Part shown: in pieces, positions 55,430-59,315 of the stretch
How positions within the stretch are numbered: the first letter of the stretch is position 1
Layout: every line of letters begins with the position of its first letter
Assembly (NCBI GenBank): GCA_017645245.1
Contig: JAGCPG010000022.1
Span: 9,519-73,518 of the forward strand
DNA from: Bacteroidales bacterium
GTDB lineage: Bacteria > Bacteroidota > Bacteroidia > Bacteroidales > F082
Length of the DNA stretch: 64,000 bases
Direction of reading: 5' to 3'
Position numbers and translations under genes: made by a program
Notes under the pieces: generated by a model
What the model saw: only the letters and a program-made list of their open reading frames with translations
What the model was told of the DNA's origin: nothing
Databases searched by the model: none

Positions 55430-56347
55430 TTAATTCGGCAATAATTTATGTGTATAGCTCAAGAACTGCAATGTTGGGTCAAAGTATTCCCTACTCAAAG
55501 GTCTCTGTTCAACGATCCGCTCACCTCGATACTTCTTTTTACAATCCCAAGTGGTATCCATCAAGAGCCATCTGCTTCCAATATTCACGGCGGTAATAAC
55601 ATGGTTGGAAGAGGATTGAATGGCTGTTTCAGACCACTTCCCTACGGTTGAATAACCCAATGCATAACAGCTAATTGTTTTTGCTGGGATTCCAATGGAA
55701 GTGAACATTGAGACAGCCAAATTAGAGAAGCCTGAGCAGACCCCTTTGCTGGATTCCAGCACTAAAGACGGAGTGCTGACTTTGGAATAATCAGTGTTTT
55801 CCTTTTTAAGGATTTTATCACAAGCATCAAGATCGTATCCGATGGTTTGCGAAATGAAGTCGTGGATAGCCAATGCAGCGTCATACGAAGTGGAGCAATT
55901 TCTTGTAATATTGTATGCAACCAACTCTATTACCCGAGAAGGAGCTGCGGATTTCATTTCTTTGAGCACAGGTTTCATTATCATTTGCTGAAAGCAATTG
56001 ACATTGCTGTCATAGACAGGTGACTTTTCAAAAGAAACAGTCCTTTTAGCATCAATGGAAATCGGTATTTTTCCAAACCAATAGCTATAAGGCTCAAAAG
56101 CAAAGCTGCGCTTAAAACAAGATAACGAATATCTCCCTGGTTGCACGTTATGGAGTTGAATATAGAACCGATTTCGGCATTTGTTGATGGGGCTACTATC
56201 CGACCTGTTGCCTTTACAATCAACTAGAGAGGCAATAATACTGTCATAAATGCCATCGGATGGGATGTGGTCAATACAGATGGCATCTTTTTCCACTACT
56301 ATTCTAACGTTGTGGCTGTTATTGTATGTAAGATTGAACTCGTTCAT
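55430..56347 (-). CDS. transglutaminase-like cysteine peptidase-fold protein
   Basis: Cys-His-Asp triad context: SKGVCSGFSNLAVSMFTSIGIPA ... SSNHVITAV ... LLMDTTWD. No signal peptide. Confidence 0.7.
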   Translation of the reverse strand: MNEFNLTYNNSHNVRIVVEKDAICIDHIPSDGIYDSIIASLVDCKGNRSDSSPINKCRNRFYIQLHNVQPGRYSLSCFKRSFAFEPYSYWFGKIPISIDAKRTVSFEKSPVYDSNVNCFQQMIMKPVLKEMKSAAPSRVIELVAYNITRNCSTSYDAALAIHDFISQTIGYDLDACDKILKKENTDYSKVSTPSLVLESSKGVCSGFSNLAVSMFTSIGIPAKTISCYALGYSTVGKWSETAIQSSSNHVITAVNIGSRWLLMDTTWDCKKKYRGERIVEQRPLSREYFDPTLQFLSYTHKLLPN

Positions 56348-59315
56348 GATGATAGGGGGTTAAAAATGATTCGTTTTTTGTAAGTTCGTTATAGATCAGC
56401 ACTGAAAACTGCCCCGCAGCTGACGCTCCCCACGATTTCTCGGTACCCAACACCATTCTGTCGCCTACTTGTTTGCCATAAGAAGCCCAACATACAACGA
56501 CCAGATTACCATCTGAAAGCACCGTCCAAAAGTCACGCTGACGAGTACTTGTCCCAGTCTTTCCATAGAAGTTTTTCCCTTGTGGCAAGTCGTTTTTGTA
56601 TCTATACAAGGTGCCGTTGCTGTCATCGATGGTTTGATGCAAGGCGTTTTTTACCACGTTGACATGGGCAATGTCCCATATTCTTCTTGACCTGACGGTA
56701 TCAGATGTTTGCTCCAATGACAATGGGATGAAAACCCCGTTATTGAAGATGGTTTGGTAGATTTGAGCAACTTCATTAACACGCATTTCTCTAATCCCCA
56801 ATGGATAGTTGTAGATGTCAGACGCACTGATGGTATCTCTGGCAATGCCCATGGATGCATAATCGTTCTCCAAATTTTGATATACCAACCTTGGATTCAA
56901 ACCTAGATCAATCAGGTTTGCAAAAGGAGCATTAAGGCTTCTTGAAAGAATTTTTTCAGCATTAACATGGATGTTGCTCCAGCCGTGGCTATTGCGTGGT
57001 GTTTTACGTTGACCAACCTTTCCATCAAACAACTTGAAATCGATTGGCCCGCCAGATTTAATGATTTCAAGTACAATTGCCGGCTTCAAAACGGAGCCTA
57101 CTGGATAAGAGTAACAATTGGCGTAATCAAGCACCTCCGAGGAAGAGAAATGGCCGACAATATTACCACTATTTGCTTCGACAACCATAGCTGCTACTTG
57201 AAGTTCGGAGCCATTTGCCCGAAACACACTCTTAGTCTTTAATAAGTCGTAAGCTGAAGCTAAAGCTCTTTCGTTCTCCAAGGTAATAGAACAATCGTGA
57301 CGGCCAAGGCTATCTTTGAATGTCCTTTCTAGATAGAGCCTCGTGCTAGCTGGGAGATCGTTACATTTATATCTTAGAGTAGAAAAACACAGCGAATCGT
57401 TGCACAATTGTCTATACTCACGATTTGAAATCAAACCTTCAGACTTCCATTTTTTGGCCTTCTTAAGCAATATACTTTTGACCAATTCAGGATTCTCCTG
57501 GACACAGGTATAGGCGATTCTCCTCTCACCATCAGTCAAATACGTAGCTCTTGGCAATGTTGAAATTAAATACAACATTTCCAATGAATTTATTTTATTT
57601 ATAGCACGGCCGAAAGTGAAAATAGAAGCTGCATTTATCCCTTGATAACCACGCGCCCCATTAAAAGAACTGATGTTCAAATATAAATCGATCAACTCTT
57701 CAAGACTATATTGTAAGGACGACTGGTATGCTCCAAGCAGGTCACTTGTTTTGCGACTACCATCGCGCGGAGCCGAAGAATACGACATTTGCTTTATAAT
57801 TTGGCAATTCAGATTGCTCCCGCCGCGCTTAATAATAGCAGGGGAAAGGCCATGCCAATTGGATTTGTTGGGAAAATAAAACTTTTGTTCTCTAAAACAT
57901 CTATCTTCTTGAAGAAGTAACATGTCAACATACCATTGAGGTATTTCTCCGGAGGAAATCGGAGCATAATAACGCTCTTGTTCCGTATCCAACCATAAAA
58001 CCTCACCATCAGGATCGACAATGTAATTATTGTTTGAATAGATACAACTGCAATCTAAACTTTTTGGGAAAACTGTGACTAACAAAAAGATCACAAAAAC
58101 AAAGCAATATCCTGATAAAAACGCTGAGACGAAAGATAATGTAGTGCGCTTGACATAGTTTATAAAATCACCCCAACGGTTGTTTAGATGTCCCTCCTTT
58201 TTAATCATAGCCACAGTTTCGTCCACCAGAAACAAAACCCCATAAACAACGGACGAAATAACAATCAGCATCATAATCAAGCAAAGCGACAAAAAGGTGA
58301 ACATAAACATTGACTGGGAATAAAACAAAGAAAACAACAGGATAATTATTCCGAACAAAGAACACAAAACAATAGTCCAACATCTATTGAGTTTCATCAT
58401 GGTAGGTTCTATGAGTGTTTGCTCAAAGGTGGAATCAAACAAAATAGCAGACAGATAATTCCAAGACCTAGCCATCGTCCTTTTTGTCAGGAAAAATGAA
58501 ATAATTACAATGACGACAAATACGGAAAACAGCAGTTTATTATTAGGTTGAAATTGAAGGCCAAGATATGATGGAACGGTTAAAACAATTGACAGAATAT
58601 ATGTAAATACTATTTGTAACCATGGTGAAGAAATAATTGTCTTTTTTATCTTTCCCATTACTAGGTATTTTTCCATGTCTTCGGTCAAATGATGAGTTTC
58701 GCTTGACATAATCCAATAACAGGAAAAAAAGAACAAGAAAAGAGACAGATTTTGCAGTATTATATACAAAGAGTTTGAAATCAAATTTAATCTATTTATG
58801 GATTGCGTATGCATGAAGACCTCAAAACCAAATAATAGAGACACTCCAATCAAAGAGAAATAGAAACAGTCTGATTCCGAATATATCCCCCTATTGTATC
58901 GTTTATTGAACGATGTAAAATAACGCCTAATTGACCATACCAGAACAAATGCAGAAAGCAGCTTATACAATGGCGAAATAAAGAGCCAAAGAAAATGGTG
59001 ACTTGGACTCTGAATATCTGATGTGTAAAAACTAAACACGCCTCGATAGGTGATACAGAATTCGGAAAGGTCATTTGTAGTGATAAAGGAAAAAAGGGCT
59101 GCTGCCGCTGAATGAACAGCGGCAGCTCCCATCGCTAACAAAACAACAATCAATATAGTTATGCCAAGTTCACAATAAAAAGTTACACCATGGCTAATAA
59201 ACAAGCTTTTCGTGTATTTCCAAAACAATCTAAATAGATCCTTAAGGAGAAAGCGGCTTGTCAGGAACAAGAACAACACCAATGTGATTATGGTAATAAA
59301 AATAATAGTTCTCAT
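56319..59315 (-). CDS. class-A penicillin-binding-protein homolog fused to a ~415-aa N-terminal polytopic membrane domain
   Basis: Residues 1-415 contain at least 10 hydrophobic segments. GT51-like motifs are LLLQEDRCF...WHGLS, GGSNLNCQIIKQ and RKTSD. Transpeptidase motifs are SVLK (S741), SLN (793-795) and KTGTS (919-923). Confidence 0.7.
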   Translation of the reverse strand: MRTIIFITIITLVLFLFLTSRFLLKDLFRLFWKYTKSLFISHGVTFYCELGITILIVVLLAMGAAAVHSAAAALFSFITTNDLSEFCITYRGVFSFYTSDIQSPSHHFLWLFISPLYKLLSAFVLVWSIRRYFTSFNKRYNRGIYSESDCFYFSLIGVSLLFGFEVFMHTQSINRLNLISNSLYIILQNLSLFLFFFSCYWIMSSETHHLTEDMEKYLVMGKIKKTIISSPWLQIVFTYILSIVLTVPSYLGLQFQPNNKLLFSVFVVIVIISFFLTKRTMARSWNYLSAILFDSTFEQTLIEPTMMKLNRCWTIVLCSLFGIIILLFSLFYSQSMFMFTFLSLCLIMMLIVISSVVYGVLFLVDETVAMIKKEGHLNNRWGDFINYVKRTTLSFVSAFLSGYCFVFVIFLLVTVFPKSLDCSCIYSNNNYIVDPDGEVLWLDTEQERYYAPISSGEIPQWYVDMLLLQEDRCFREQKFYFPNKSNWHGLSPAIIKRGGSNLNCQIIKQMSYSSAPRDGSRKTSDLLGAYQSSLQYSLEELIDLYLNISSFNGARGYQGINAASIFTFGRAINKINSLEMLYLISTLPRATYLTDGERRIAYTCVQENPELVKSILLKKAKKWKSEGLISNREYRQLCNDSLCFSTLRYKCNDLPASTRLYLERTFKDSLGRHDCSITLENERALASAYDLLKTKSVFRANGSELQVAAMVVEANSGNIVGHFSSSEVLDYANCYSYPVGSVLKPAIVLEIIKSGGPIDFKLFDGKVGQRKTPRNSHGWSNIHVNAEKILSRSLNAPFANLIDLGLNPRLVYQNLENDYASMGIARDTISASDIYNYPLGIREMRVNEVAQIYQTIFNNGVFIPLSLEQTSDTVRSRRIWDIAHVNVVKNALHQTIDDSNGTLYRYKNDLPQGKNFYGKTGTSTRQRDFWTVLSDGNLVVVCWASYGKQVGDRMVLGTEKSWGASAAGQFSVLIYNELTKNESFLTPYHHERVQSYIQ

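Follow-up and report, generated by a model that had tools for sequence, protein, structure and literature searches.

In this work, a 64,000-nucleotide stretch of DNA from a rumen Bacteroidales bacterium (GenBank assembly GCA_017645245.1, contig JAGCPG010000022.1, positions 9,519 to 73,518; hereafter the window) was found to carry a gene, termed gene D, that encodes a class-A-type penicillin-binding protein (PBP) predicted to span the membrane with ten helices, and that works, as we propose, within a conserved four-gene cassette, A-B-C-D. Class A PBPs, major targets of antibiotics, belong to the most thoroughly studied enzymes of bacteria, and those described are, as far as our literature searches reach, all anchored by a single helix. 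The enzyme domains of D are already known, while the libraries and literature searched contain neither the ten-helix domain nor its obligatory partners, a vWA lipoprotein and a coiled-coil protein, nor the cassette as a whole. Literature searches on polytopic class A PBPs, vWA-PBP operons and PBP-based defence found nothing relevant, and no PBP fusion is described in the Lipocone superfamily paper. We propose, with even chances of being right, that the cassette is an accessory, mobile and self-contained trans-envelope module for peptidoglycan synthesis or repair, which protects the envelope in conflicts. Gene D and its domains are the following, in positions of the window.

56319..59315, minus strand: gene D, polytopic class-A-type PBP (single open reading frame, Pfam domains, relatives, identical contigs)
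58068..59315, minus strand: predicted N-terminal ten-helix membrane domain, amino acids (aa) 1-416, N-out/C-out (hydropathy, AlphaFold2, positive-inside rule)
57537..57980, minus strand: GT51 glycosyltransferase domain, aa 446-593 (Pfam Transgly, alignment to E. coli PBP1b, invariant residues)
56541..57194, minus strand: transpeptidase (penicillin-binding) domain, aa 708-925, with S741xxK, S793xN and K919TGT (Pfam Transpeptidase, invariant residues)

Gene D is one uninterrupted open reading frame of 998 aa with an ATG start, which overlaps the stop codon of gene C (ATGA). Pfam recognizes Transgly at aa 446-593 (57.7 bits, gathering score 27, E = 1.3e-15) and, at aa 708-925, Transpeptidase (32.7 bits, gathering score 22.1, E = 5.8e-8), and finds nothing further in D at E ≤ 1; aa 1-445 are without a Pfam match, BiPBP_C (PF06832) was not found, and neither Peptidase_M56 nor any other protease or signalling domain is matched. 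Independent assemblies from two studies (runs X1, and X4/X5) gave contigs that agree with the window over 55400-61600 without a single mismatch or gap, and about 35 full-length relatives have the same architecture; therefore, the fusion is not a frameshift artefact. The initial annotation of this DNA had left room for the N-terminal 415 residues being a separate gene, which these contigs and relatives contradict, and its central claim, a class-A-type PBP with a real polytopic N-terminal domain, is supported by Pfam, hydropathy, AlphaFold2 and the relatives alike.

As a class A PBP, D possesses a GT51 domain (PF00912) with the motif-1 Glu and the motif-3 acid, and a transpeptidase domain (PF00905) with SxxK, SxN and KTG, but it lacks the single N-terminal anchor, the canonical motif-1 spacing and the motif-2 sequence GGSTITQQ. 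With E. coli PBP1A and PBP1B (3VMA, 5FGZ) it shares the order of GT51 followed by acyl-serine transpeptidase, the periplasmic location of this module, and the motif set of motif-1 catalytic Glu, RKxx[E/D], YLN, SxxK, SxN and KTG. However, D has ten membrane helices rather than one, none of the UB2H or ODD regulatory domains, GGSN[LI]NxQ as motif 2 and a displaced His-x-Gly, and it is accessory and mobile rather than part of the core. Against the NCBIfam models it scores 86.4 bits for PBP1A (TIGR02074, cut-off 508.75), 78.3 bits for PBP1B (TIGR02071, cut-off 717.75) and 104.5 bits for PBP1C (TIGR02073, cut-off 494.2), the last being the best of the three. D is a separate deep PBP lineage, whose nearest detectable relatives are of the PBP1C type.

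The polytopic nature of the N-terminal domain is indicated in several ways. A Kyte-Doolittle scan gives about 10 hydrophobic segments in aa 1-416, in line with the at least 10 segments originally noticed in residues 1-415, and an AlphaFold2 model of aa 1-425 (18 homologues; pLDDT 83, pTM 0.84) contains ten long helices together with short interfacial ones. Among 50 family members, aligned at identities down to 23% and used for the residue conservation reported here for D, Lys and Arg abound in the odd-numbered loops (net charge +0.9 to +2.4), while the even-numbered loops and the segment past the tenth transmembrane (TM) helix are neutral or acidic. The predicted topology is thus N-out, ten TM helices and C-out, which places the PBP module in the periplasm.

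No known fold could be assigned to this domain. A profile search against all PDB sequences returned 0 matches at E ≤ 10, and Foldseek, which is weak on all-helical membrane folds, returned from the PDB a best E of 0.14 with TM-scores ≤ 0.26, namely noise-level similarities to G-protein-coupled receptors and assorted transporters, and no match among viral predicted structures. An internal 5+5 repeat was not detected by hhalign of the two halves (probability 0.2%). As far as Foldseek can tell for helical membrane proteins, and with the PDB and the viral predicted structures as the fold libraries covered, the modelled domain appears to be a previously unseen fold. SEDS proteins (FtsW/RodA), MurJ/MOP and O-antigen ligase (WaaL)/Wzy were considered and are not supported, having no Pfam or PDB-sequence match to the domain and being absent from its top 50 Foldseek matches; acyltransferase-3 and other known transporters are likewise not supported, with no Pfam, PDB-sequence or PDB/viral fold match. 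The pairs of a SEDS protein and a class B PBP (RodA-PBP2, FtsW-FtsI) resemble D in that a ten-TM protein is combined with a penicillin-binding transpeptidase to make peptidoglycan, but the membrane domain of D has neither sequence nor fold similarity to RodA/FtsW, and its polymerase is GT51 and not SEDS.

The conserved residues of the membrane domain are concentrated on one side of the membrane. R91, Q171, G252 and P417 are invariant, all on the periplasmic face, and F86, Q102, P115, N137, P248, Q254 and K418 are conserved in at least 90% of the sequences; save P115 and N137, the conserved residues lie at periplasmic loops or helix ends, at the level of the membrane at which GT51 encounters its lipid-linked substrate. 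TM10, followed by P417-K418, takes the position of the canonical class A PBP anchor. This location of the conserved residues, on the periplasmic face beside GT51, favours substrate handling or partner docking over transport.

The catalytic motifs of both enzyme domains are retained, with departures confined to GT51. In the window protein, the GT51 motifs read QEDRCF...WHGLS (E470, H488), GGSNLNCQIIKQ (498-509) and RKTSD (521-525), and those of the transpeptidase read SVLK (741-744), SLN (793-795) and KTGTS (919-923). Invariant in all 50 family members are E470, D471, G489, S500, N501, K522, Y545 and G559 of GT51 and S741, K744, S793, K919 and T922 of the transpeptidase, and N795, T920 and G921 are retained in at least 48 of the 50. 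The GT51 signature of the family could be written as EDRxF-x6-P-x3-SNW[H]G-x-S ... GGSN[LI]NxQxxK[NQ] ... RKxx[ED] ... YxN. E470 aligns with the catalytic Glu of EDRHF in E. coli PBP1b, but WHG is found 18 residues past E470, as against 7 for the canonical HxG (E-x6-H-x-G), and is displaced by 11 residues. Because the spacing between the catalytic Glu and the motif-2 Ser (30 residues in D, 33 in E. coli PBP1b) is kept within 3 residues, the segment between motifs 1 and 2 appears to be rearranged and not simply lengthened; otherwise, the canonical HxG would have been lost and WHG would be a new conserved element. In motif 2, GGSN[LI]NxQ replaces GGSTITQQ, with Thr changed to Asn twice. The motif-3 acid at position 525 is Glu in 39, Asp in 10 and Gly in 1 of the family members, so that the RKTSD of the window is a clade variant.

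The reading of these motifs in the initial annotation is largely upheld: the transpeptidase triad SVLK/SLN/KTGTS is intact with its catalytic residues invariant, motif 3 is RKTSD, and motif 2 does depart from GGSTITQQ, in a form whose N501 is invariant. The insertion of about 10 residues that it had placed in motif 1 stands as regards the 11-residue displacement of WHG, but not as a simple insertion, given the nearly unchanged distance from the Glu to motif 2. That the catalytic residues of both enzyme domains are invariant over such wide divergence argues for an enzyme active in glycan polymerisation and cross-linking, and against a pure sensor; D is thus probably competent as a polymerase and D,D-transpeptidase, which is compatible with a sensor role in addition.

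Three genes upstream of D complete the cassette.

59312..60103, minus strand: gene C, 263-aa predicted vWA-fold lipoprotein (AlphaFold2 and Foldseek, position directly upstream of D)
60115..61344, minus strand: gene B, 409-aa inner-membrane coiled-coil protein (alignments, presence upstream of D)
61378..61536, minus strand: gene A, 52-aa acidic open reading frame heading the cassette (open reading frame at the same position in most loci)

A, B and C precede D in the loci with enough upstream sequence: B is present in every such locus, C is called directly before D in nearly all, and the position of A is occupied in most by an open reading frame of 52-81 aa with poorly conserved sequence. The order B-C-D is common to rumen Bacteroidales, Cytophagales and two further metagenome-assembled genomes (MAGs), one of them Chitinophagaceae, and the proteins keep their sizes across loci (about 410-440 aa for B, about 250-264 aa for C). 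B consists of an N-terminal PxR[DN] motif, a cytoplasmic coiled coil, four TM helices, in which E150 and R173 are invariant, and a C-terminal cytoplasmic coiled coil. It has no Pfam, PADLOC or PHROG match, with nothing significant in Pfam even at E ≤ 10, and only 3 close homologues among 5.8 billion proteins in a word-indexed search.

C bears a lipoprotein signal, and its AlphaFold2 model (pLDDT 87.7) matches only vWA domains among the top 50 Foldseek hits in the PDB (probability 0.98-1.00, E = 1.7e-5 to 1e-3), by which C is modelled as a vWA-fold lipoprotein. Pfam yields no significant match to C even at E ≤ 10, the best of its VWA models being VWA_CoxE at E = 0.037 in one member. A partial set resembling the metal-ion-dependent adhesion site (MIDAS) is conserved, namely D39-x-[TS]41-[DE]42, T76 and D165, while the second Ser position is not. 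The C family comprises 39 clusters, all of about 210-264 aa and unannotated, and is as small as the D family; together with the three close homologues of B, this indicates that the three genes are a co-inherited unit.

The D family is rare. The word-indexed search of the same 5.8 billion proteins yielded 23 relatives at 29-95% identity; they measure 757-1016 aa, 22 are full length, and all are nameless and derive from metagenomes. A HMMER profile of the N-terminal domain alone matched only 50 proteins among 1.84 billion representatives, of which about 35 (980-1053 aa) have the same architecture and the rest are short fragments, presumably cut at contig ends. Since the matches are all full architectures or fragments, the membrane domain occurs essentially only in fusion with this PBP module. 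In a scan of one genome per species, gene D was found in 15 of 185,579 species, 14 of which are labelled Bacteroidota; the remaining one, a Peptococcaceae, is represented by a 3-kb contig and is probably mis-binned. The carriers span several Bacteroidota orders and comprise rumen and gut Bacteroidales MAGs, Cytophagales, Cyclobacteriaceae, Roseivirga, Draconibacterium and an unclassified Bacteroidia MAG, and include two cultured Cytophagales, Splendidivirga corallicola BMA10 and Agaribacillus aureus BMA12. Metagenomes from livestock guts contain the family, too. The few homologues of D or its partner genes that have a name at source are always called 'hypothetical protein', so the architecture is neither common nor already annotated, against the possibility raised in the initial annotation that it might be both.

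The cassette has been reshuffled by recombination, and a breakpoint can be located within gene D of the window.

57305..57325, no strand: recombination breakpoint (about aa 665) separating the TM/GT51 half from the transpeptidase half (identity jump, start of nucleotide similarity)

Compared with the relatives P0007-P0009, window D is 15-46% identical over aa 1-665 and 78-100% over aa 666-980, while P0002, a 96% relative of window D, drops to 82-87% in aa 666-850. At the nucleotide level, the window matches another cassette locus, L004, only over 57305-55429 (70%), which covers the transpeptidase half and the transglutaminase-like gene that follows. The identity jump at about aa 665 and the L004 match indicate that diverged cassettes have exchanged the transpeptidase half, along with the gene after it, by recombination. 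Between the window and L004, identity is 23% for B, 40% for C, about 35% for the N-terminal half of D and about 76% for its transpeptidase half; the divergence of A, B and C goes along with that of the TM/GT51 half of D, which fits B and C working with the membrane/GT51 half. Relative to a variant about 97% identical in run X6, the window has a 1-nucleotide indel at 56374 that makes the C-terminal tail of its D different and longer, where relatives end in ...KT(N/H)xF, and that accounts for the 29-nucleotide overlap of D with the next gene.

The genomic context is that of a mobile unit. The G+C content of the cassette is 34-42%, versus 45-57% further left in the window, and the island that holds it begins just after tRNA-Ser(GCT) and tRNA-Pro(TGG) at 41568-41770, directly after glmM; the tRNA pair is therefore a likely integration site. 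In the window, the cassette adjoins genes for KptA/Tpt1, a Mad2-like methyltransferase, an NT5C nucleotidase and a HAD phosphatase. Flanking genes at some other loci encode TIR/ThsB proteins, a ParE toxin and an ADP-ribosylglycohydrolase, at another PIN toxin pairs, in a Chitinophagaceae MAG (L030) HamA, GmrSD, an IS91 transposase and an integrase, and in another MAG integrases and an ABC/AAA_21 ATPase operon. The distribution is patchy, and an island context was found at the gut and rumen loci and at two further MAG loci, but not at the Cytophagales loci. The cassette is thus a mobile accessory unit lodged often, though not always, in defence-type islands. Its identity as a known defence system or a phage gene was examined and rejected, with no PADLOC or PHROG match to the cassette proteins.

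Downstream of D, the operon of the window continues with three genes, which vary among loci.

55430..56347, minus strand: gene E, 305-aa transglutaminase-like protein without signal peptide (Pfam Transglut_core, E = 4e-17)
54503..55408, minus strand: gene F, 301-aa lipoprotein, cluster c9 (lipoprotein signal in the sequence)
53922..54542, minus strand: gene G, UPF0227 (YqiA-like) alpha/beta hydrolase, the last gene of the operon (Pfam PF05728, E = 4e-8)

Gene E is accessory and present at some loci only, following D in L004 and L017 and lying further downstream in L001. Homologues of F are found downstream of D in L010, L018 and L019, and in L010 and L011, too, the operon ends with a gene of the UPF0227 family of G. 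A 202-220-aa protein with a BrxL-like ATPase, or a Ser/Thr kinase, follows at other loci from rumen and gut, and no downstream genes are attached to the Cytophagales cassettes.

Based on these findings, we propose that the single-helix anchor of a class-A-type PBP has been replaced by a ten-helix domain, in which TM10 would stand for the canonical anchor and the other nine helices would form a platform at the outer leaflet, with a cluster of Arg, Gln and Lys residues (R91, Q102, Q171, Q254, K418) beside the GT51 active site. This cluster most likely serves to bind the undecaprenyl-pyrophosphate-linked substrate or product, or as a docking site for partners. D would work in a fixed four-gene cassette with A as a small cytoplasmic protein, B as a four-TM coiled-coil protein and C as a periplasmic vWA lipoprotein, and the module would protect against phage, competitor toxins or lytic enzymes, rather than serve housekeeping growth. 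The make-up and topology of D, its invariant catalytic residues, the conserved cassette, the vWA fold of C, the rarity, the patchy distribution, the island context and the mosaic structure stand on the observations above; that D is active as an enzyme, what its membrane domain does, that C and B interact with D, and that the cassette is protective are our inferences.

The lipoproteins LpoA and LpoB are required activators of the E. coli class A PBPs, and C probably plays for D the role that they play there. Like LpoA, LpoB and LpoP, C is a dedicated lipoprotein encoded with, and strictly co-occurring with, its class A PBP; however, its vWA fold is unrelated to theirs, and both its activator role and its location in the outer membrane are putative. 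A precedent for the part in defence or repair is PBP1C, the nearest PBP subfamily, which is itself accessory, paired with a lipoprotein (alpha-2-macroglobulin) and proposed to act in periplasmic defence and repair (PMC4498604). PBP1C (PbpC) with its alpha-2-macroglobulin (YfhM/ECAM) resembles D in being an accessory, horizontally spread class A PBP adjoining the gene of a periplasmic lipoprotein, but D has no BiPBP_C domain, its partner is a vWA lipoprotein and not a macroglobulin, a polytopic domain and protein B are added, and the hosts are Bacteroidota.

Several observations weigh against this proposal. The Thr-to-Asn changes of motif 2 and the displaced WHG could mean an altered substrate, and the role of the membrane domain is read solely from the positions of conserved residues. 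The neighbours of the Cytophagales cassettes are sulfatases, GH95, MacB/FtsX-PadR genes and sensor kinases, that is, ordinary genes, so the link to defence islands is not universal; none of the proteins A to G matches PADLOC-DB v2 at E ≤ 0.01, and no RNA run was found to contain the cassette sequence. Moreover, the variable cytoplasmic downstream genes (transglutaminase-like protein, BrxL-like ATPase, kinase) fit a sensor-effector system better than a pure synthase.

A more far-reaching form of the proposal, which we advance only tentatively and regard as somewhat unlikely, is that A-B-C-D would be a trans-envelope immune system of a new kind, the first to have a dedicated peptidoglycan synthase at its core, and would sense and seal, or answer, breaches of the wall. 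Such breaches would be made by phage injection machinery, endolysins or competitor toxins, and in gut lineages exchangeable cytoplasmic effectors would be added.

An envelope sensor-effector of the abortive-infection type, in which the PBP ectodomain would be a receptor for peptidoglycan damage, precursors or beta-lactam-like molecules, like BlaR1/MecR1, and in which the ten-helix domain and B would relay the signal to the transglutaminase-like protease, the BrxL-like ATPase, the kinase or the esterase, is the main rival, though unlikely as a whole. Variable cytoplasmic genes after a conserved core are seen in many conflict systems, the surroundings of the gut and rumen copies and of the Chitinophagaceae MAG copy are those of defence islands or mobile elements, most of B is cytoplasmic coiled coil and its TM helices carry conserved charged residues, and the rapid joint divergence of A, B, C and the TM/GT half of D looks like co-adaptation. 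However, the GT51 catalytic Glu and the full motif set are invariant, which would be needless in a pure sensor, the conserved residues of the N-terminal domain are periplasmic and not distributed along a transmembrane relay or on the cytoplasmic face, and the Cytophagales cassettes lack accessory effector genes. BlaR1/MecR1 do share with D a polytopic membrane domain joined to an extracytoplasmic penicillin-binding domain; nevertheless, BlaR1 has four TM helices, a zinc-protease M56 domain and a C-terminal class-D-like sensor, whereas D is without any protease or signalling domain recognized by Pfam and contains a complete GT51.

We consider it improbable that D is a bypass synthase giving tolerance to beta-lactams, to moenomycin-type phosphoglycolipids (used as feed additives) or to bacteriocins, in the manner of mecA-type PBPs. 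A mobile accessory PBP with altered donor-site motifs (GGSNLNxQ for GGSTITQQ, and the displaced WHG) that occurs in livestock guts would suit such a function, as would the MacB/FtsX-PadR genes that recur near the Cytophagales copies; but isolates and MAGs of Cytophagales, Cyclobacteriaceae, Roseivirga and Draconibacterium carry the family outside livestock guts, SxxK, SxN and KTG are entirely standard, and resistance leaves the obligatory partners B and C and the ten-helix domain unexplained.

There is likewise little likelihood that the GT51 fold has been recruited for a lipid-linked glycan other than canonical lipid II, with the membrane domain supplying or modifying that substrate. The family-invariant changes in motif 2 (N501, N503), the rearranged segment between motifs 1 and 2, and a new membrane domain with a conserved polar cluster on its periplasmic face would be expected of such an enzyme. 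However, the D,D-transpeptidase is intact in all members, which implies a peptide-bearing, peptidoglycan-type substrate, and the membrane domain matched neither a sugar-modifying nor an acyltransferase fold. Finally, a housekeeping class A PBP, or an assembly or frameshift artefact joining two genes, for which only the presence of standard PBP domains speaks, is excluded by the identical independent contigs and the same fusion in about 35 full-length relatives, by scores of 78-105 bits where the PBP1A, PBP1B and PBP1C cut-offs are 494-718, and by the occurrence in 15 of 185,579 species at low G+C in an island.

For the proposed synthesis or repair module, the ten-helix domain, the obligatory vWA lipoprotein and the coiled-coil partner would widen the known organisation and regulation of GT51 polymerases. 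If the membrane domain does bind the lipid carrier, it would offer a natural model for the hand-over of substrate to GT51, and if the cassette does protect against phage or competitors, cell-wall synthesis would be linked directly to bacterial immunity. The two cultured Cytophagales carriers, Splendidivirga corallicola BMA10 and Agaribacillus aureus BMA12, open the cassette to experiment.

Further observations were made on the surroundings of the cassette. Upstream of gene A in the window lies the relic of a gene that is intact elsewhere.

61763-62529, plus strand: decayed AAA_14/DUF4143 ATPase remnant, frameshifted and N-terminally truncated (comparison with L004)

In L004, the AAA_14/DUF4143 gene is intact beside the cassette at the same position and in the same orientation, with 55-61% aa identity to the remnant. 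Genes for KptA/Tpt1, a 190-210-aa methyltransferase and radical-SAM proteins recur near the cassette at rumen Bacteroidales loci in differing orders (window 62585-63136 and 63183-63812; L004, L009, L014, L015, L018), and look like shuffled cassettes of one variable island. To the right of the tRNA pair, the island of the window is compositionally mixed and includes a phage-like endolysin, a nuclease, a Fic protein and others; two tandem paralogues of 223 and 222 aa (43145-43816 and 43971-44639, minus strand) both begin MGKIKQGILGGF, and the one of the two compared with PHROG, 43145-43816, had no match there.

At the Chitinophagaceae locus, the D copy (L030:8645-11656) reads in three frames, implying two frameshifts, and is either a decaying pseudogene or affected by long-read indel errors. 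A five-gene operon including an ABC_tran/AAA_21 ATPase stands divergently beside the cassette at two unrelated metagenome loci (L012:188-5316 and L031:850-5982), and may be another system or a linked module. In a gut MAG (L001:1-22961), the cassette lies among peptidoglycan-active genes, for an M23/LysM peptidase, two SLT lytic transglycosylases and an Amidase_2 protein, and the same stretch also holds a Ser/Thr kinase and a PP2C phosphatase.

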